Positions 1,020 through 26,258 of a stretch of DNA of 32,000 nucleotides are shown piece after piece; within the stretch, counting starts at the first letter, position 1; the number at the start of each line of letters is the position of its first letter. The DNA comes from Butyricimonas paravirosa (lineage in GTDB: Bacteria; Bacteroidota; Bacteroidia; Bacteroidales; Marinifilaceae). The stretch is from the NCBI RefSeq assembly GCF_032878955.1, contig NZ_CP043839.1, positions 4,473,185-4,505,184 of the forward strand. The letters run 5' to 3'. The notes under the pieces are model-generated. The model made no database searches and had not been told where the DNA came from. It worked only from the letters and a program-made list of their open reading frames with translations. The position numbers and the translations under genes are program-made.

Positions 1020-4000
1020 ATGATGAAAAAAGTTGTGATTCAATCGCGGAAATTCTTGTTTATTTTCGTGACTCTGTTGCTGGCTTACGGGACCATGCTA
1101 AGGGAAGAGGTTTCAGCCCAAACGCAACAAATGAGTGTTAAGTTTGAAAATATGTCTCTTTTGGATGCCTTGGGACATTTAAGCAAACAAACGGGTGGAA
1201 AGATATTATACAATCATGAGCGGATTGATAAATCCGTGAGGATTAATGTCGTATTGACGAACAAAGCTCTTCCTGATATCCTGAATAAATGTTTGCAAGG
1301 GACAAAGTACATGTACAAGGAAGTAGATGGGGTATATGTTATTTCCGAGAAAGAAGAGGTGGTTGTTCAAGAAAAGAAGGAGATTGTGGTGAAAGGAAAT
1401 GTAAAGGATGAGAGGGGTGAGCCCATGCCGGGTGCCACGATTATATTGAAAGGTACGACGATCGGTATAACCTCTAATGAGACGGGAGATTTTACATTAC
1501 TTCTGCCTGCTAAAGACTCGTTGATATTACTTGTTTCCTTTATCGGTTATGAAACACAGGAGATAAAAGTACAAGGTGACAAGAAACTGAATATACGGAT
1601 GAAGATCGAAACAAGTGCTTTGGAAGATGTGGTCGTTACAGGATATGCCAATATTGATAAAAAGAGCTTTACCGGAAATGCTGTTAGCGTGAGCAAAGAG
1701 GAATTACTGAAAGTTTCCAAGTCGAATGTGATCCAAGCGTTGCAAGTGTTTGACCCCTCCTTTAGAATTCGGGAAAATAATAAATGGGGATCAGACCCGA
1801 ATGCATTACCAGAGGTGAATATCCGGGGTACTTCCAGTACGGGAGTGAAGGCGTTGGATGCCGATCCGCTGGATAAATCGAATTTGAAGAATAATTCAAA
1901 TTTACCGACATTTATTATGGACGGCTTCGAAATTAGTGCGGAGAAGTTATACGATTTTGATCCCAATAGGATTCAAAACATTACAATTTTGAAGGATGCT
2001 GCTGCAACTGCGATTTACGGTTCTCGTGCTGCCAATGGGGTGGTGGTCATTACAACCGTGGCTCCGAAAGCCGGACAGTTGTCTGTAACGTATAGTTTGA
2101 CCGGAAAAGTTTCTACTCCTGATTTGAGTGATTATAATTTAATGAATGCCAGAGAATTGTTGGATACAGAAATTGCGGCAGGTTTTTATGAGGCAGAGAC
2201 TTTTCCCGAATTGTATTCTAAGCGGGAGGAATTGTTAGCTAAGGAGGCGAATATAGCGCGGGGAGTGAATACTTATTGGTTGTCGCAACCTTTACGTACA
2301 GAATTCAACACGCAGCATAGTTTGTACATGGAAGGAGGGGCTCAAGGTTTACGATATGGGATTGATTTTAGTTATCGGAATGATAAAGGGGTGATGAAAG
2401 AATCTTTCCGAAAGAGAATAGGGGGAGGATTTTCTATTAATTATCAAGTTAAAGGCTTGTCGGTGCGAAATTATATCTCTTATAGCGTGATGAATTCAGA
2501 GGATTCTCCATACGGTTCTTTTTCTAGTTATGCATCAGCATTGCCTTATGATCGTTATAAAGATGAAAATGGGGTAATTGCCCAAAATTTGCCTCAATGG
2601 CATAATAGATCCGGGATGACGACTGAGGATTTGGGACGGGTAAATCCATTGTACGAGTCAACTTTGAATAATTTCAGTGGATCAAAGTATGAGGAGTTAA
2701 TTGATAACTTTGGTGTGAATTGGATGTTTGCCGAGCATTTTCAGTTAAAGGGTGATTTTAGTGTGACCCGCCGTTTTTCTACGACAGAACGTTTCGTTGA
2801 TCCAAAGTCTTTACAAAATAAGAATGAATCATTGTCTGTAAATAATATGTCTTCTGGCTCGTATAATTTAAGTAAGAGTGAAGAACTTAGTTGGAATACC
2901 AATATTTTGTTTGCATATAATCAAATGGTGAATAGGCATAATATAAATTTGACTGCCGGGTTGAATATTATGGCAAATAAGAGTGAGGGGACTTCTAGTC
3001 AATATAAAGGTTTTCCGTCCGGCTCGTTGAATTCTATTAATTATGCAGAGGAAATATATGAAAAGCCGACTGCTAATGAGCGTTTGAGTAGAATGATTGG
3101 TTTTTTGGCTGGATTGAATTACACGTATAATAATATTTATTTGTTGGATGCTTCTTGTCGTTTTGACGGTTCTTCAGATTTTGGTAAGGATAAAAAGTTT
3201 GCTCCTTTCTGGTCGGCTGGACTCGGTATTAATATTCATAACTATGAATTCATGAAACAACAAGGTGTGTTGTCAACTTTAAAATTGCGGGCATCATACG
3301 GGGCCACGGGTAAAGTGAATTTTCCCCCGTATGTAGCGAAAACAACCTATGAGGTTTTAACTGATCAATGGTATCGTACGGGATTTGGTGCATTACTGAA
3401 AGCATTGGGTAATCCAGCTTTATCTTGGGAGAAAACGAAAACTTTTGATGCTGGATTCCAATTAGGTTTTATGCATGACCGTTTGTTTATCACGGGAAGT
3501 TGGTATCACAAGAAAACGACAGGTTTGATTACCACGGTAGCTATTCCGACATCCTCTGGTTTCAATGATTACTATGATAATATGGGTAATGTTTTGAATA
3601 AAGGTATTGAGTTGGATGTGAAGTACGAGATTGTAAGATGTCAGGATTGGAATTTCTCTGTCTATGGAAATTTGTCTCATAATAAAAACGAGATATTAGC
3701 GATCTCTGAAGCTTTAAAACGGTATAATGACCGGGTAAATCAGTATTACCAACGGAGTTCAAATTTGAAATCGTCTTCGGAAATTTTAACAAAATATGAA
3801 GAAGGAGGTTCTAATACAGCCAAATATGGTATGAAATCTTTAGGAATTGATCCGGCAAACGGTAAAGAGATGTTTTTAAAGAAAGATGGGACGATTACTT
3901 ATACTTGGTCTGGAGACGAGATGGTGATTATCGGTGATACAGAACCGGATGCTCAGGGGTCTTTCGGGTTTAATGTACGTTATAAAAATTTGTCATTGTT

Positions 4001-19235: not shown

Positions 19236-19853
19236 ATGACCTTTTTAGAATTTAAGAATCAACTATTCGATTTAGCATGTTTCAATATCTATCAGGTATA
19301 TGCATGGCAACCGGATTTTGACCGCAATAATCTTACCCGTTGGGTGAAAAAAGGGTATCTTGTCCGTTTACGGCAAGGATATTTTGCTTTTTCTGAATAC
19401 AAGAGTAAGCTGGATTATTCCCTTTATTTTGCTAATCGGATTTACCGGCCCTCTTATATTAGTCTACATACAGCATTAGCGTTTTACGGGATGATACCGG
19501 AAGCAGTAGTGCAAATTACCAGTGTGACATCACTAAAAACTGTCTCATTTAATAACGACTTTGGTGAATACTCCTATAAAAATCTCAAAGAGAATCTAAT
19601 GTTCGGGTATGAATTAAAGCCAGTGGCAGATAATCGTACCATGCAGTTTGCTACACCTGAAAAAGCATTGCTTGATTTACTGTATCTTTATCCATTTTAT
19701 GATAACGAGCAGGAATTAGAGGAGTTGCGTTTGGATGAAGATTATCTACATGATGATTTAAATAAGGATTTATTGATGGACTATTGTGGCAAGTTTCAAA
19801 ACAAGGCACTTGACCGTCGGATAAAATTACTTTTTAAGACTTATGATTTATGA
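19236..19853 (+). CDS. abiEi: AbiEi-family antitoxin / transcriptional regulator (type IV TA, abortive infection)
   Basis: 205 aa. The N-terminal wHTH-like segment is LTRWVKKGYLVRLRQGYFAF. There is a 4-nt ATGA overlap with the downstream AbiEii nucleotidyltransferase gene. Confidence 0.75.
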   Translation: MTFLEFKNQLFDLACFNIYQVYAWQPDFDRNNLTRWVKKGYLVRLRQGYFAFSEYKSKLDYSLYFANRIYRPSYISLHTALAFYGMIPEAVVQITSVTSLKTVSFNNDFGEYSYKNLKENLMFGYELKPVADNRTMQFATPEKALLDLLYLYPFYDNEQELEELRLDEDYLHDDLNKDLLMDYCGKFQNKALDRRIKLLFKTYDL

Positions 19854-20638
19854 TACAAATAGAGCAGATAAGAAATTATTTTCCAGTTCAGATTCGTGGA
19901 AATTCAAGTTTCGATAAGTATATGTTGAAAGAGTATTTGCAGTTGATGATTTTAGATTACCTTTCTTCTACTCCAACCATTCAAAAGATGGTTTTTATCG
20001 GGGGAACAAACCTGCGTTTAGTCAAAGGGATCGATCGGTTCTCCGAAGACCTGGATTTTGATTGTAAAGAATTATCGAAAGAAGAGTTTGTTGAAATGAC
20101 AAATGGGGTAATCCGGTTTTTGGAGCGTTCAGGGTTAAGGGTCGAAGCGAAAGATAAAGAAAATCCGAAGTTAACAGCATTTAGGCGTAATATCTATTTC
20201 CCGGAACTCTTGTTCGATTTAGGATTGAATGGACACAAGGAAGAACGTTTTTTAATAAAGGTCGGGAGCCAAGATCAACAAGTTAATTATTCCCCGGTTG
20301 TTACAAATATCAAGGAGTGTGGATTCTTTTTTCCGTTTCCCGTTCCTTCTGATGGTGTATTATGCAGTATGAAAATTGCAGCTATGTTAGCTCGTGCTAA
20401 AGGTCGTGATTTTTATGACCTGATGTTTTTGCTTTCACAAGCAAAAACGGATTACAATTATCTATCACAACGTTGTGGAATACATAATTTGCAAGAATTT
20501 AAGCAAGTGACGGTCGAATTGCTAAAAACAGTTGATTTGAAGGAGAAACAAAAGGATTTTGAACATTTACTTTTCAACAAAGTGAATAGTGAGAAGATCT
20601 TAAGATTTGGGGAATTTGTGGATTCTCTGACAGAATAA
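19850..20638 (+). CDS. abiEii: AbiEii/AbiGii-family nucleotidyltransferase toxin (DUF1814)
   Basis: 262 aa. The Pol-beta-type NTase motif is FIGGTNLRLVKGIDRFSEDLDFD (GG-x-R.SEDLDF), with a C-terminal RDFYDL motif. It is translationally coupled to abiEi. Confidence 0.85.
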   Translation: MIQIEQIRNYFPVQIRGNSSFDKYMLKEYLQLMILDYLSSTPTIQKMVFIGGTNLRLVKGIDRFSEDLDFDCKELSKEEFVEMTNGVIRFLERSGLRVEAKDKENPKLTAFRRNIYFPELLFDLGLNGHKEERFLIKVGSQDQQVNYSPVVTNIKECGFFFPFPVPSDGVLCSMKIAAMLARAKGRDFYDLMFLLSQAKTDYNYLSQRCGIHNLQEFKQVTVELLKTVDLKEKQKDFEHLLFNKVNSEKILRFGEFVDSLTE

Positions 20639-20717
20639 TTATGTGAGGATGATATTTGCCTGTTTTATTATTTTATGTATATTAGCATGGCGTAATTTCT
20701 AAAGATATAGTTATAGT

Positions 20718-21803
20718 ATGGAAATTCCTTCATCAAAGGTTTTGACCACCAATTGTTTGAGTCGGGTATTTAATTCGACAGTAGCTACTTATAAATATTA
20801 TTGGTTTATTTCTATTTTAGAGATATATGTGGGGACGGAAACTTCACGGATAAAGCTTTGGGATATTATTATTTCGATGATTGCTAATGCATGGTATCCG
20901 GTTCATTATTTTCGTCTTTCGTTTGGGAAAAATGATTCGATGTATGGGGCAATTAAACAGCTCCAAGTGTTGGCCGGAATACCAATAGATGCAAATAAAA
21001 AAGATATTGTAGATGCTTTAAGGAAAGAATTGCATCGCAAAGAAATTAAGTCGTTGTTACGTGTTTTCACGTTGAATGTCCCTTTTCGATTTCTTCGCCC
21101 GTGGATAGATACATCTGATGATAAACAGATGGTTGTACGTTCTCAGGCATTTGAAAATGTTTGTTTGTATGCCTTGAAAAAAGAGGAAAATGAATGGTGG
21201 ATTGAGATAAATCCTGCTTGGAGTGATTATTTGAAGGAGAATTACCGGATATTGATGGATTTTGCTTATTGGAATCTTACATTGTTTTTGCAAACTCGTA
21301 ATCCCAATGTACCTAATATCCCTAATAAATTAATTAAACCAGAATACCGGGATTCACTTACAAGGCAGCGTATGTTTTGGAATACAGTGATTCAGACAAA
21401 TGGACAATTAACGTGTATTTATACGGGACGAGAATTGCATGTGGGAAATTATGATTTAGATCATTTTATCCCATGGAGTTTTGTTTCTCACGATTTATTG
21501 TGGAATCTATTACCTGCTGATCCAAGTATTAATTCATCGAAGAGTAACAAATTACCATTATTAGATGTTTATCTCCCCGGATTGGCAAATGCTCACCATA
21601 GGGCTTTGTGTACTTATATAACATTGGATAAAAACAAGATGGTGTTAGAAGATTACTTGTCATTGGGGCATACTCCAAATGAATTAGCAAATATGAATGA
21701 CGTTCATTTTTATGAGATTTTTTATCAGACATTTTCTCCAATGGTTCAAATTGCTATGAATATGGGATTTGAGTTATGGAATTATACATTTAATTATGAA
21801 TAA
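20718..21803 (+). CDS. HNH (beta-beta-alpha-Me) endonuclease with a ~230-aa unassigned N-terminal domain
   Basis: 361 aa. The Cas9/McrA-like HNH core at aa ~233-280 (nt ~21414-21557) reads CIYTGRELHVGNYDLDHFIPWSFVSHDLLWNLLPADPSINSSKSNK. I do not recognise the N-terminal region (LSRVFNSTVATYKYYWFISILE...). Confidence 0.8.
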   Translation: MEIPSSKVLTTNCLSRVFNSTVATYKYYWFISILEIYVGTETSRIKLWDIIISMIANAWYPVHYFRLSFGKNDSMYGAIKQLQVLAGIPIDANKKDIVDALRKELHRKEIKSLLRVFTLNVPFRFLRPWIDTSDDKQMVVRSQAFENVCLYALKKEENEWWIEINPAWSDYLKENYRILMDFAYWNLTLFLQTRNPNVPNIPNKLIKPEYRDSLTRQRMFWNTVIQTNGQLTCIYTGRELHVGNYDLDHFIPWSFVSHDLLWNLLPADPSINSSKSNKLPLLDVYLPGLANAHHRALCTYITLDKNKMVLEDYLSLGHTPNELANMNDVHFYEIFYQTFSPMVQIAMNMGFELWNYTFNYE

Positions 21804-22182
21804 AACGATTGTTGAATGTCCTTTTTGTAATTTAAAAAAGGAAATCGAGATTATTTCTGAAACTGAAAGTTGTATTGCTTTTTATGATGGTTTCCCTGTG
21901 AATCCGGGGCATGCGTTGATAATTCCTAAACGTCATGTGTCTAATTATTTTGAACTTACTCGTGATGAAGTTCTGGAAATGCAAGAGATGTTGTGGTATG
22001 TAAAGAAGGTTATAGATGAACGTTATCATCCGGATGGGTATAATATTGGGGTCAATGTAAACGAGTCTGCAGGACAGTCTATATTTCATGTACATATGCA
22101 TCTTATTCCAAGATATAAGGGGGATATGGAGAATCCGAAGGGGGGAGTCCGTGGGGTGATTCCTTGTAAGCAAAAATATTGA
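21796..22182 (+). CDS. HIT-family (histidine triad) nucleotide hydrolase/transferase
   Basis: 128 aa from ATG 21796; the ORF track offers an earlier ATG at 21769. The N-terminus has ECPFCNL, the triad is SIFHVHMHLIPR and the tail is GGVRGVIP. ATG 21796 overlaps the HNH stop (21801-21803) by 8 nt. Confidence 0.88.
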   Translation: MNKTIVECPFCNLKKEIEIISETESCIAFYDGFPVNPGHALIIPKRHVSNYFELTRDEVLEMQEMLWYVKKVIDERYHPDGYNIGVNVNESAGQSIFHVHMHLIPRYKGDMENPKGGVRGVIPCKQKY

Positions 22183-22598: not shown

Positions 22599-22629
22599 TT
22601 TGTTTATTGTAAAAATGTTTATATATTTG
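22599..22629 (+). promoter_or_regulatory. Bacteroides-type sigma-A promoter (-33 TTTG / -7 TAnnTTTG)
   Basis: TTTG lies at 22599-22602, followed by a 19-nt spacer and TATATTTG at 22622-22629. This places a start site at about 22634-22637, exactly where the long closing helix of the structured element begins. Confidence 0.5.
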
Positions 22630-22633
22630 TAAT

Positions 22634-22793
22634 GCGTAACATACTCAAGGGTAGGGAATCCTGCCACTGCATAGCAGGCATTTTTTATGCCTGTTATCTC
22701 CATACGGCGGTTCCGAACCCCCGTGATGGAGTGTGTAATGCACCCACAGCCCTTGAGGTGTTACGCAGCGGGACAGGCGGAACCGTTTTTTTT
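22634..22793 (+). ncRNA. Unassigned ~160-nt structured RNA (sRNA or riboswitch-like leader) ending in U8
   Basis: Closing helix: GCGTAACA-ta-CTCAAGGG (22634-22651) pairs with CCCTTGAG-g-TGTTACGC (22750-22766). Internal competing hairpins: CCTGC(22660-64)/GCAGG(22674-78) versus CAGGCA(22675-80)/TGCCTG(22688-93). Extended hairpin at 22698-22731: CTCCAT-ACGG-c-GGTT-ccg-AACC-c-CCGT-g-ATGGAG. Its apex CGGTTCCG (22708-15) is complementary to CGGAACCG (22778-85), which directly abuts T8 (22786-93). Confidence 0.5.
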
Positions 22794-23147
22794 CGTCCTA
22801 ATCTTTAAACAAAAAGGCTTATGAGGGTAAATCGTGATCATATTTTTGTGAGGGGAATTGCTGATCTGCTTTCCATATTTCTTTGATTTTACTATTGATT
22901 TGTAATTAGGTCGGCTAGGAGAGTATTCGAAGTTAGGAATGTTTTGATCTTTATATCTTTTGATCAGTTTTGTAAAATCTTTATCTTGTATGGTAAAGGT
23001 AGGGATGGGTATGTCAAATTGTTACGAAATGTAAATTGTGAAAGAAGAAACAGAAAAATAAAAGAGGGGTGTATTCTATGCCTGAGAAACGTTGAATATC
23101 ACCCCCTTGTGTAAATCAATTTTATCAATTAATTAACAATCAAAGTT

Positions 23148-26100
23148 ATGAAAAAAACTTATGACAGGAAAGTTTTTAAGCGAAAGTTACTGTCGGATCG
23201 AAGGACGGTAACCGTGACAATCCGGTTATTTATGATTTTATTGTTGGGCTTCCCGCTATTGACGAGGGCCGGGACGGTGGATTCCACTCGTGTAGCGAAT
23301 CGGGAGGTGAGGGGAAAGGTGGTGGACGAGAAGAAGCTGCCGATACCGGGAGTCTCGGTGCGTCTGGGAGGAACGTCGATGGGAACGGCCACTGATGTTG
23401 ATGGGAAGTTCAAGTTGTTGATCCCGGCTGACACGGCCACGCTGGTAGTTTCCTTTATCGGGATGAAGACCGAGATCGTGAAGATTCCCCGGCTGAAAAC
23501 GGGTGCGGAACAAAAGGAGTTGACGATCGTGTTGCGGGAAGAGGACGTGAAACTGGAAGACGTGGTGGTGACGGGTATCTTCACCCGTAAGAAGGAAAGT
23601 TTCACGGGATCGGCTTCCACTTACTCGGCTGCCGAGTTGAAAACGATGGGTACGCAGAACGTGTTACAAAGCTTGAAGACTTTGGACCCGGCTTTCGCCA
23701 TTATCGAGGATAACCAGTTCGGTTCTGACCCGAATCGCTTGCCGAACATGGAAATCCGGGGAAAGTCGAGCATGTTGGGATTGCGGGACGAGCTGGATGC
23801 CGACCCGAACCAGCCATTGTTTATCCTGGATGGTTTCGAGTCTACGTTGGCAGCGATTAATGATCTGGATATAAACCGGGTGGCCTCGATCACGATCTTG
23901 AAAGATGCGGCATCGACGGCAATTTACGGTTCGAAGGCGGCTAACGGGGTGATCGTGGTAGAAACGGTGAAACCGGAAGCGGGGAAGTTACAGGTGAGCT
24001 ACAACGGGAACATGAATCTCTCGATACCCGATTTGTCGAGTTATAACTTGATGAATTCAAGGGAAAAACTGGAATTTGAATTATTGGCAGGAAGGTACGA
24101 CCCGGCGAATTGGTCGACAGCGAACGAAGTGGAAATGAATCGGTTGTATAACGAGAAATTGAAGGAAATCGAGAGCGGTGTAAACACGTACTGGCTGGCA
24201 GAACCTTTACGGGTAGGGGTGAACCAGAAACACTCGCTCTATGTGCAGGGCGGTGAAGGAAACTTCCTGTTTGGTTTAGGTGCGGGATATAACGGGATAA
24301 CCGGGGTTATGGAGAAGTCTGATAGGGAGGTGCTTAGCGGTAATATTGATTTGATTTACCGGATGTCGAAATTTCAGTTCTCCAATAAATTCTCGTTGAC
24401 TTCAACTGATTACAAGAACCCGATCGTGGCTTTCAGCGCGTATGCCGCGGCGAATCCTTATTACAGAAAGTATAACGAGGATGGAACCGTGGATAAATGG
24501 TTGGAGAATAACAAATTTTTCAAGGCGGCTAACCCGTTGTGGAATGCCCGACAGAATAGTCGGGACGAGGGGAAAAATCTCTCTATTAGTAATTATTTCA
24601 TGGCGGAGTATTTCCCCACCGTGGAATGGCGGGTACGTGCCCGGTTAGGGCTGACTTACGGGAATGACGACACGGAAAAGTTCTATTCCCGGAATGATAC
24701 CCGTTACGAGAATGTGGAAACGATCAAGAAAGGGGAATATCGTTCAACGAATACCAGAAAAAATCAAGTGGAGGCGGAATTGAGTGTCACGTATGCCAAG
24801 ATGTTGGGGAGACACCGGATTAACTTGGTGGCCGGGGGAAATATTTCCAGTAACAAGTCGTTAACGCAGGGATATTCAGCATTAGGATTCCCGGAGGGTA
24901 ATTTTTCTTATCCCTCATTCTCGAACGGTTACCCGGAAAATGGCACGCCGACATACTACGAGACGGTGTCCCGCTCGGTGAACGGTTATTTCAACGCGGG
25001 GTACTCTTTTGACGATCGTTATTTGATGGATTTCAGTTTGCGGACAAGCGGGTCTTCGGTTTTTGGAACCTCCCGAAAGTATAACACGACGTGGTCGGTC
25101 GGGTTAGGCTGGAACTTGCACAAGGAGAAGTTTATCATGGATCACGTGGAATGGATTAACATATTGAAACTGCGGGCCTCTATCGGTAATCCCGGAAACC
25201 AGAGTTTTGACTCGGCGCAATCCTTGTTGACTTATTCTTTCCAGTACGGTTCGATGAACTATTTCGGGCTGGGTGCCGTGTTGTCACAAATCGGTAATCC
25301 CGATTTGGAATGGCAGATCACGGTCGATAAAAATATTGGTCTCGACGTGACGTTGTTTAACAAGCGTTTCTCGCTGACGGCGGATTATTATTACAAGGTG
25401 ACCGACCCGTTGTTGATCAAGGTAAGTACGCCGCTTTCTTCCGGAACGCCGACTTACATGACGAATGCGGGAGAACAGGTGTCACAGGGATTGACGGCAT
25501 CGGTGTCTTATTATATTTTCCAAGATTTTGAGAAACGTTTCTCGTGGATGATACGGGCGAACGTGCGAACTCAGAAAACCCGGATTGACAAGATCGGGAA
25601 CAAGCTCTCCACGTTGAACGCCAGTGGAAAGGGAGAAAACACGGTGAGGTATTATGACGGGGCAGACCCGGATGATATTTGGGCGGTGAAGTCCGCGGGG
25701 ATTGATCCCTCGAACGGGAAGGAGTTGTTCTATGCCAAGGATGGTAGCTACACGTACGATTTCTCGTATGATGACGAGGTGATTTGCGGGAACACCCGTC
25801 CCGACGTGGAAGGTGTGATCGGGACCTCGCTCAACTGGAAGGGATTTTCCGTGAGTTTGAATTTCCGTTACCAGATGGGTGCGGACGTGTTCAACGAGGC
25901 CCTTTATAGTAAGGTGGAAAATATTTCAAGGAGTGATTTGAACAAGAATCAGGATAAGCGGGCGTTGTACGAACGTTGGCAGGAAGTGGGGGACATCGTG
26001 CGTTTCAAGGATATTGCCAGTGCGGAGACGACCCCGATGTCTTCCCGTTTCGTGCAGACAGAGAACGTGTTGACCTTGGAGTCTCTCTATCTGGGGTACG

Positions 26101-26258
26101 AGTTTTACAACGGGTGGATCGAGAAACTTGGCTTGAGTAGCCTGAAACTACAATTCTCCATGCGTGACGTGTTCCGGGCATCGACAATCCGGTCTGAAAG
26201 AGGAATATCTTATCCTTTTGCCCGGAGTATGGAGGCAGGACTTTCGTTTAATTTTTAA
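23148..26258 (+). CDS. SusC/RagA-family TonB-dependent transporter (no STN domain)
   Basis: 1036 aa. The carboxypeptidase-regulatory-like segment is VRGKVVDEKKLPIPGVSVRLGGT...FIGMKTEIV and the plug motif is ITILKDAASTAIYGSKAANGVIVVETV. It shares NTYWL..PLR and LKLRASIGNPGN motifs with the first SusC, and it ends in terminal F. Confidence 0.95.
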   Translation: MKKTYDRKVFKRKLLSDRRTVTVTIRLFMILLLGFPLLTRAGTVDSTRVANREVRGKVVDEKKLPIPGVSVRLGGTSMGTATDVDGKFKLLIPADTATLVVSFIGMKTEIVKIPRLKTGAEQKELTIVLREEDVKLEDVVVTGIFTRKKESFTGSASTYSAAELKTMGTQNVLQSLKTLDPAFAIIEDNQFGSDPNRLPNMEIRGKSSMLGLRDELDADPNQPLFILDGFESTLAAINDLDINRVASITILKDAASTAIYGSKAANGVIVVETVKPEAGKLQVSYNGNMNLSIPDLSSYNLMNSREKLEFELLAGRYDPANWSTANEVEMNRLYNEKLKEIESGVNTYWLAEPLRVGVNQKHSLYVQGGEGNFLFGLGAGYNGITGVMEKSDREVLSGNIDLIYRMSKFQFSNKFSLTSTDYKNPIVAFSAYAAANPYYRKYNEDGTVDKWLENNKFFKAANPLWNARQNSRDEGKNLSISNYFMAEYFPTVEWRVRARLGLTYGNDDTEKFYSRNDTRYENVETIKKGEYRSTNTRKNQVEAELSVTYAKMLGRHRINLVAGGNISSNKSLTQGYSALGFPEGNFSYPSFSNGYPENGTPTYYETVSRSVNGYFNAGYSFDDRYLMDFSLRTSGSSVFGTSRKYNTTWSVGLGWNLHKEKFIMDHVEWINILKLRASIGNPGNQSFDSAQSLLTYSFQYGSMNYFGLGAVLSQIGNPDLEWQITVDKNIGLDVTLFNKRFSLTADYYYKVTDPLLIKVSTPLSSGTPTYMTNAGEQVSQGLTASVSYYIFQDFEKRFSWMIRANVRTQKTRIDKIGNKLSTLNASGKGENTVRYYDGADPDDIWAVKSAGIDPSNGKELFYAKDGSYTYDFSYDDEVICGNTRPDVEGVIGTSLNWKGFSVSLNFRYQMGADVFNEALYSKVENISRSDLNKNQDKRALYERWQEVGDIVRFKDIASAETTPMSSRFVQTENVLTLESLYLGYEFYNGWIEKLGLSSLKLQFSMRDVFRASTIRSERGISYPFARSMEAGLSFNF

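Follow-up and report, generated by a model that had tools for sequence, protein, structure and literature searches.

What is the element preceding the SusC-like gene in this part of the Butyricimonas paravirosa chromosome, and is it there to regulate that gene? The region analysed (hereafter the window) is a 32,000-nucleotide stretch of contig NZ_CP043839.1 (assembly GCF_032878955.1, positions 4,473,185 to 4,505,184, forward strand). From sequence alone, the original prediction proposed that positions 22599-22793 encode a promoter-driven RNA of about 160 nt with competing helices and a long-range, pseudoknot-type pairing abutting a U-run, with the logic of a riboswitch or attenuator for the SusC operon downstream. 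The sequence features so described are all present and the observation is confirmed, whereas its interpretation is only partly supported. The RNA belongs to a large family, absent from Rfam, that normally heads antirepressor and other accessory genes of Bacteroidota phages, and the copy in the window is best regarded as an orphan or co-opted one.

A structured RNA absent from Rfam

The promoter comprises a -33 TTTG (22599-22602) and a -7 box, TATATTTG (22622-22629). The -7 word alone occurs at chance frequency in the window, so support for it comes from its conserved position: TAnnTTTG is present in 83 of 105 family members and in 77 lies exactly 3 nt before the closing helix, P1, which therefore begins at about the first bases of the transcript. 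P1 is formed by pairing of 22633-22642 with 22758-22767 and of 22644-22651 with 22750-22757, A22643 being bulged, giving 18 bp rather than the 16 originally counted. CGGTTCCG (22708-22715) is exactly complementary to CGGAACCG (22778-22785), which is followed directly by eight T (22786-22793). The only local hairpin adjacent to the U-run is of 4 bp (ACGG/CCGU), as had been predicted. The + strand RNA (22633-22793) is predicted to fold at -74.2 kcal/mol, compared with -49.5 +/- 4.6 for 200 shuffles (z -5.4); the minus strand folds about as well, so strand had to be assigned by other means.

Assignment to a known RNA family had been named in advance as an outcome that would overturn the proposal, but scans against Rfam 15, including C4 (RF01695), sRNA-Xcc1 (RF02221), FopS, cobalamin and other riboswitch models, gave no hit on the element at E up to 10 in the window or in 6 loci with divergent members, and none at gathering score in 14 loci. 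AGGGAA and GCCACTG, as in cobalamin riboswitches, are present in this copy, but GCCAC is not conserved in the family; likewise a tRNA-like T-arm, GGTTCCGAACC, is not conserved. No paper describing the element was found in the literature searched, which lacked most subscription journals.

The second outcome named beforehand, an absence of conservation or covariation among homologues, was not observed. Five copies are present in this genome, and a covariance model (R1) built from 21 copies identified the RNA in 33 of 97 genomes of the same taxonomic family, with a distribution that is patchy by genus (8/10, 7/8, 13/20 and 2/2 in some genera, but 0/11, 0/9 and 0/8 in others); one genome has 11 copies and some have tandem arrays with copies 1-2.2 kb apart. 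The RNA is present in 6 of 150 other genera sampled across the order, but matched, weakly, only 1 of 150 genomes in a phylum-wide sample. A pattern scan of a genome collection was too loose when used alone, giving many chance hits in high-G+C genomes, so only loci confirmed by the model were used; these include records of Butyricimonas, Alistipes, Odoribacter, Rikenellaceae, Parabacteroides, Paludibacter, Chitinophagaceae and Flavobacterium. The same approach gave at least 78 matches, in 80 IMG/VR viral loci, and the family as a whole occurs on more than 100 viral contigs. One viral locus is a true phage with a tape-measure gene and three element-plus-small-ORF cassettes. In the published Porphyromonas phage phage016a_WW2866 (BK068097.1), the RNA lies at 3715-3897 in the early region, just after an annotated anti-repressor. 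By contrast, searches of GenBank phages and plasmids with the window copy or with locus L242 gave no match. The window copy (22616-22796) scores 197.4 bits (E 2e-60) over the full length of R1, although it was in the seed alignment; independent members score 23-200 bits.

In an analysis of 105 distinct members, 92.1% of pair cells are standard pairs, compared with 70.6% after shuffling of partners and 28-45% when partners are slid, and 49 of 54 pairs show changes on both sides. All 18 pairs of P1 show double compensatory changes. The P3 hairpin (22671-22697; AUAGCAGGCAU/AUGCCUGUUAU with a U-rich loop; helices 9-11 of the analysis), i.e. the predicted CAGGCA/TGCCTG hairpin, is supported, though it is replaced or absent in the most divergent members. 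The long-range pairing is also supported, as a true, two-part pseudoknot (helices 12-18; 96-100% paired with many compensatory pair types). Its 5' strands are PK1 CGGUUCCG (22708-22715), CC (22718-22719) and PK2 CCCGU (22720-22724), and its 3' strands are PK2 GCGGG (22768-22772), then, after a conserved ACA loop, GG (22776-22777) and PK1 CGGAACCG (22778-22785). PK1, of 8 bp, is 96-99% paired, with variants such as CGGUAUCG:CGAUACCG, CGGCAUUG:CAAUGCCG and CGGUCCUG:CAGGACCG; PK2 (CCCGU:ACGGG in the family) is nearly invariant, with rare compensations, e.g. CCUGU:ACAGG and CCCUC:GAGGG. The pseudoknot was not part of the model used to make the alignment, so these counts are not fitted to it.

Two of the originally proposed helices, the CCTGC/GCAGG alternative and the 14-bp CTCCAT/ATGGAG hairpin (22698-22731), exist in this copy but are not kept in divergent members. 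Covariation instead supports a P2 hairpin with a GNRA-like loop (22652-22663; UAGG-GAAU-CCUG, consensus CGGG-GAAA-CCUG; helices 7-8), with compensatory variants including GCGAG/CUCGC and GGACGA/UCGUCC, and a P4 hairpin (22727-22746; helices 19-20) with a conserved UUAAUG-type loop, all 6 pairs of which covary. G.U pairs outnumber A.C by 367:111 in the nested helices and by 82:7 in the pseudoknot, which fixes the + strand and argues for selection on RNA, not DNA. The element is not protein-coding, since its body is free of stops in only 30 of 105 members.

The possibility of a DNA-level element, i.e. an invertible promoter segment (inverton), raised at the outset as an alternative, or an attC-like recombination site shuffling gene cassettes, bears on these same data. 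Inverted repeats flank about 100 bp, cassette-like tandem arrays of element plus ORF occur, the upstream flank is hypervariable between relatives, and partial 3' copies exist (L008, L023). However, the repeats differ in sequence in every copy and covary, whereas recombinases need conserved sites; a covarying helix pairs the inside with a segment outside the repeats; promoter and U-run sit at fixed positions; a third copy of the repeat word is tied to a start codon (below); and no recombinase was seen next to the copies inspected. With the G.U asymmetry, this leaves the inverton alternative rejected and the DNA-level reading in general very improbable, although the orientation of the segment was not examined in reads. 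A relationship to the rAID-1 integron-like intergenic repeats (bioRxiv 10.1101/471110), not tested directly, is unlikely because the family was not found in 11 of 11 genomes of one large-genome genus, taken without verification to be Bacteroides, where rAID-1 is common.

Downstream genes and a matched start-codon strand

Whether homologues always precede SusC-like genes had been set as a test of the proposed link, and they do not. In 84 of 101 members with enough flank, a same-strand ATG ORF of at least 50 aa starts a median 34 nt after the PK1 end (IQR 31-37), i.e. about 25 nt after the U-run; this leaves no room for a separate promoter, so it can be inferred that the ORF is expressed only by read-through of the U-run. 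The 84 proteins fall into 37 unrelated clusters, mostly phage antirepressors and small unknown proteins. The largest cluster (20 proteins) comprises Bro-N, KilAC and Rha type phage anti-repressors by PHROGs. The second (11 proteins) is a 137-188-aa family followed by a ~340-aa protein; neither has a Pfam, NCBIfam or PADLOC match, and they lie in small chromosomal islets next to core genes. That the cargo proteins are unrelated to each other also rules out a type III toxin-antitoxin RNA.

The 3' strand of P1 (22750-22767 in the window), often together with the PK2 3' strand, can in intact members pair with the sequence ending at or including the start codon of the next gene, because that sequence is a direct copy of the P1 5' strand. 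Cognate duplexes average -17.2 kcal/mol compared with -12.9 for non-cognate ones (mean rank 23.6 where 51.5 is expected; 0 of 5000 permutations as good). After removal of duplicate addresses, an exact shared word of at least 8 nt occurs in 43% of cognate pairs but in 2.1% of non-cognate pairs, starting 8-21 nt before the ATG or at +1 or +2. In addition, the segment right after the U-run is complementary to AGG plus the first half of the PK1 3' strand, again in a cognate-specific manner (0 of 5000 permutations), which would put the U-run in a hairpin loop in read-through transcripts. The 3' half of the leader therefore has two mutually exclusive, cognate-matched sets of partners: with the upstream set it forms P1 plus the pseudoknot, and with the downstream set one long hairpin that buries the start codon. 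P1, the variable 'address', is the fast-changing part; among 11 close relatives its identity is 82%, compared with 92% for the rest of the RNA, with pairing always kept, and copies within one genome or phage all differ in P1.

A cis-acting switch is the somewhat favoured explanation. The analysis itself establishes the promoter, the four-helix junction (P2, P3, P4) closed by P1, the sequence-conserved pseudoknot whose 3' strand runs straight into a U-run, the ORF about 25 nt later in intact members and the alternative, cognate-matched partners. It is by inference that the pseudoknot plus U-run act as an intrinsic terminator releasing a ~160-nt RNA, that read-through transcripts carry the ORF, and that the P1 3' strand can hide the start codon whenever the P1 5' strand is not holding it, so making a two-state on/off switch with a private address. 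A stable G+C-rich helix immediately followed by a U-run, as in intrinsic terminators, is present, with a U-rich run following PK1 in nearly all members. However, this helix is long-range rather than local, a simple terminator scan did not find it (returning only a different 7-bp candidate hairpin, 22776-22797, spanning the U-run), and a pseudoknot acting as a terminator is unusual and untested; transcript starts and ends, read-through, processing and any trans action were not measured here. Minimum-energy, nested folds of full-length leaders keep P1, rather than the start-codon pairing, in 75 of 85 members, so the hiding fold needs an unknown factor that removes, occupies or out-competes the P1 5' strand, unless the short RNA acts in trans; the present data do not distinguish these.

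In the trans alternative, the terminated RNA, possibly after removal of its 5' strand, would be an immunity RNA that pairs through its P1 3' strand with the start-codon region, or nascent leader, of cognate transcripts, giving each phage or cassette private repression of its antirepressor. Three matched copies of one variable word, the antirepressor cargo, the different addresses within one genome or phage, the faster evolution of P1, the closed P1 in full-length folds (which calls for an extra step or a trans partner), and a terminator placed so as to make the short RNA in excess are consistent with this proposal. By contrast, in the short RNA the antisense strand is locked in an 18-bp helix, no processing site or enzyme is known, cognate matching is explained equally well by a purely cis switch, and the window RNA has no matching target in its own genome beyond chance. 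This reading is possible but less likely.

A cis-acting processive antiterminator, like the put RNAs of HK022, would be consistent with the position directly after a promoter at the head of phage early or accessory units and with a highly conserved fold independent of the cargo. It does not, however, explain the cognate-specific start-codon copy or the post-U-run complementarity, and many units are single small genes with nothing further to read through, so it is very unlikely.

Comparison with known regulatory RNAs

The logic is closest to that of two phage immunity RNAs, although there is no homology to either. The CI RNA of satellite phage P4 is a short RNA made from the untranslated leader of the operon that it controls, with one segment complementary to two copies of a word, seqA and seqC, one upstream and one downstream in the same transcript, the outcome being shut-off of downstream genes (PMC4825925). 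The P1 5' strand, P1 3' strand and start-codon copy have the same three-copy layout in the family, whereas in the window only the upstream word is present. There is no sequence or structure similarity to P4 CI, which acts by antisense-dependent transcription termination in a proteobacterial host; here the downstream copy sits on the start codon, after the U-run, and the RNA has a large conserved pseudoknotted scaffold. The c4 antisense RNA of coliphages P1/P7 is reported (Citron and Schuster 1990) to be embedded in the leader upstream of an antirepressor operon and to pair with the translation start region downstream, variable pairing words giving immunity specificity; c4 is, however, 77 nt, has no pseudoknot and pairs through loops rather than a helix strand.

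In translational ON riboswitch platforms, such as the Vibrio add adenine riboswitch, the P1 3' strand similarly pairs either with the P1 5' strand, leaving the start site free, or with the translation start region, hiding it, but there is no homology to these, and here no ligand is known or indicated, the cargo genes are unrelated to each other, and a pseudoknot and U-run lie between P1 and the start site. IsrK of Salmonella prophage Gifsy-1 likewise has one promoter giving a short terminated RNA and a longer read-through mRNA, translation of which the short form controls, in a prophage regulatory unit (PMC4825925); its sequence is unrelated, it activates rather than hides, and it has no three-copy address. 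The FopS/GibS RNAs of Bacteroides thetaiotaomicron are multicopy, have canonical promoters and affect SusC translation starts (PMC11697453). However, FopS RNAs are of 65-70 nt, with a single-stranded seed plus a terminator, and are in Rfam, whereas the window RNA has no free seed and no complementarity to the SusC start. The UG27 reverse-transcriptase ncRNAs of gut Bacteroidota prophages (bioRxiv 10.64898/2026.09.22.753630) are units of about 150 nt with a pseudoknot, conserved structure and diverse sequence, but form head-to-tail arrays beside an RT and carry AUCN7UANAG and UUYA motifs. The AUCN7UANAG motif was found in only 1 of 105 members, each unit here has its own promoter, U-run and ORF, and no RT was seen in the loci annotated, although RT neighbourhoods were not searched systematically; a retron ncRNA was rejected likewise.

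The window copy and the SusC operon

In the window, the ATG at 22821 opens only a vestigial 21-codon ORF (22821-22886) where intact members carry their cargo gene; relatives have 18-36 codons with poorly conserved peptides. There is no copy of the P1 5' strand there (duplex rank 69 of 104), near the SusC start, or elsewhere in the genome beyond chance; a weakly similar word about 45 nt upstream of the SusC ATG does not covary with P1. The SusC-like gene (23148-26258, + strand) starts 354 nt after the U-run. Orthologous SusC genes (91-98% identical N-termini) follow the RNA at 350-450 nt in eight loci of related genomes, all in one close subfamily, and in two further loci an ECF sigma gene follows. 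The upstream flank differs every time, with AbiE, HNH and HIT here and RhuM, HigBA and others elsewhere. Promoter, fold, pseudoknot and U-run are kept under selection, P1 still changing by compensation among close relatives. In this view the copy still makes a structured, terminated RNA and can act only as a terminator/attenuator, or as a free small RNA, any effect on SusC coming through attenuation of read-through rather than the address mechanism, though function is least certain here, where the downstream half of the switch is missing.

The originally proposed ligand-sensing riboswitch or attenuator, in which binding of a small molecule or universal host factor to the invariant junction and pseudoknot core decides whether the terminator forms, and so controls the SusC operon, is thus only partly borne out. 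An RNA on the + strand with its own promoter, a U-run whose only strong upstream helix is the pseudoknot, and switch-like alternative pairings are all supported. Invariant core nucleotides (UACCCCCGUG, UUAAUG, CAACGGGAMAGG) inside variable, covarying helices are typical of aptamers, the terminator strand is shared with the core, and the synteny with SusC and ECF sigma genes is consistent with such a role. By contrast, the downstream genes have no shared pathway, most members are on phage contigs, no known riboswitch model matches, and SusC lies behind a decayed ORF and a second -7-like word at 22841. A metabolite riboswitch is not indicated by the gene context and this reading is unlikely; ligand-dependent structural change was not assayed. 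A broader version, also unlikely but not excluded, is that the core is a receptor for a universal cellular signal, either a metabolite or a host protein such as RNA polymerase or an RNA chaperone. The family would then be a new sensor class gating antirepressors, and hence lysis-lysogeny decisions, of phages across Bacteroidota, with the address adding cassette-specific immunity and the orphan copies before SusC operons and ECF-sigma genes being host domestications.

The results correct the annotation of BK068097.1, in which a hypothetical CDS is called across the RNA. For the window, they place the SusC cassette, without a dedicated riboswitch on the favoured reading, behind a phage-derived promoter-RNA-terminator module next to a defence islet. 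How temperate phages of gut and oral Bacteroidota control antirepressors and accessory genes is almost unknown; a single RNA device found on more than 100 viral contigs and in many genomes would be a main control point, and its private address would make it a set of orthogonal, programmable switches for Bacteroides engineering.

Genes and cassettes downstream of other copies of the RNA

Two other copies of the RNA in this genome, at loci L003 (11-1476, minus strand) and L004 (1734-3201, plus strand), i.e. around 597,000 and 3,976,000 of its contig (G000:C1), head a two-gene operon encoding a protein of 147-165 aa followed by one of about 340 aa. The operon, which gave no Pfam, NCBIfam or PADLOC match, lies in tiny islets beside uvrB/HigBA and yidC/pyrG, and its two protein products appear to share a repeated motif (LLxxLxxxWxxxxxxxxxxxxYV). 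In L015 and L050, two further loci with the RNA, the ORF following it (80-108 aa, including FLAGVWLKEAGFEVGDFARITV) looks like that of a SymE/AbrB-fold toxin, though no family search was run on it.

Tandem arrays of three element-plus-ORF cassettes, 0.3-2.2 kb apart, occur in loci L083 (G231:C8:8000-24000), L082 (G240:C1:1498000-1512000) and L236 (3899-4922); in one phage these are located between tail genes and the tape-measure gene, in an arrangement like that of morons. In the published Porphyromonas phage phage016a_WW2866 (L312, BK068097.1), the hypothetical protein CDS DBA55287.1 (3686-4255) is called straight across the RNA (3715-3897), and the real ORF probably starts about 25 nt after the U-run.

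Sequences between the RNA and SusC

A hairpin (GGGGTG..ATTC / GAAT..CACCCC; window 23066-23117) is present about 45 nt before the SusC start. The 3' arm of this hairpin, with its flank (AACGTTGAATATCACCCCCTTGTG), weakly resembles a decayed copy of the PK2 plus P1 5' words, but does not covary with P1 among relatives, so it is probably not a working target. A 17-nt inverted repeat (76% complementary) links the -7 box and P1 start (window 22625-22641) with a site 110 nt upstream of SusC (window 23020-23036), possibly by chance.

Partial copies and the variable upstream flank

Partial copies holding only the 3' part of the RNA were observed (L008:1056-1267, L023:1500-1570 and L022/L029), one of which lies 400 bp upstream of a full copy, and one of which is cut off next to a transposase-like gene; these suggest recombination or insertion events inside the element.

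The DNA just upstream of the promoter of the RNA differs in every related locus, as seen by comparing window 19236-22182 with the upstream flanks of loci L002, L003, L006, L008, L010, L021 and L025. In the window this region comprises AbiEi/AbiEii plus HNH plus HIT, whereas RhuM/Bro-N, HigBA and other unrelated genes are present elsewhere; by contrast, the RNA and the downstream genes stay the same. It seems that the element marks the edge of a hotspot for small defence or toxin-antitoxin islets without an integrase.
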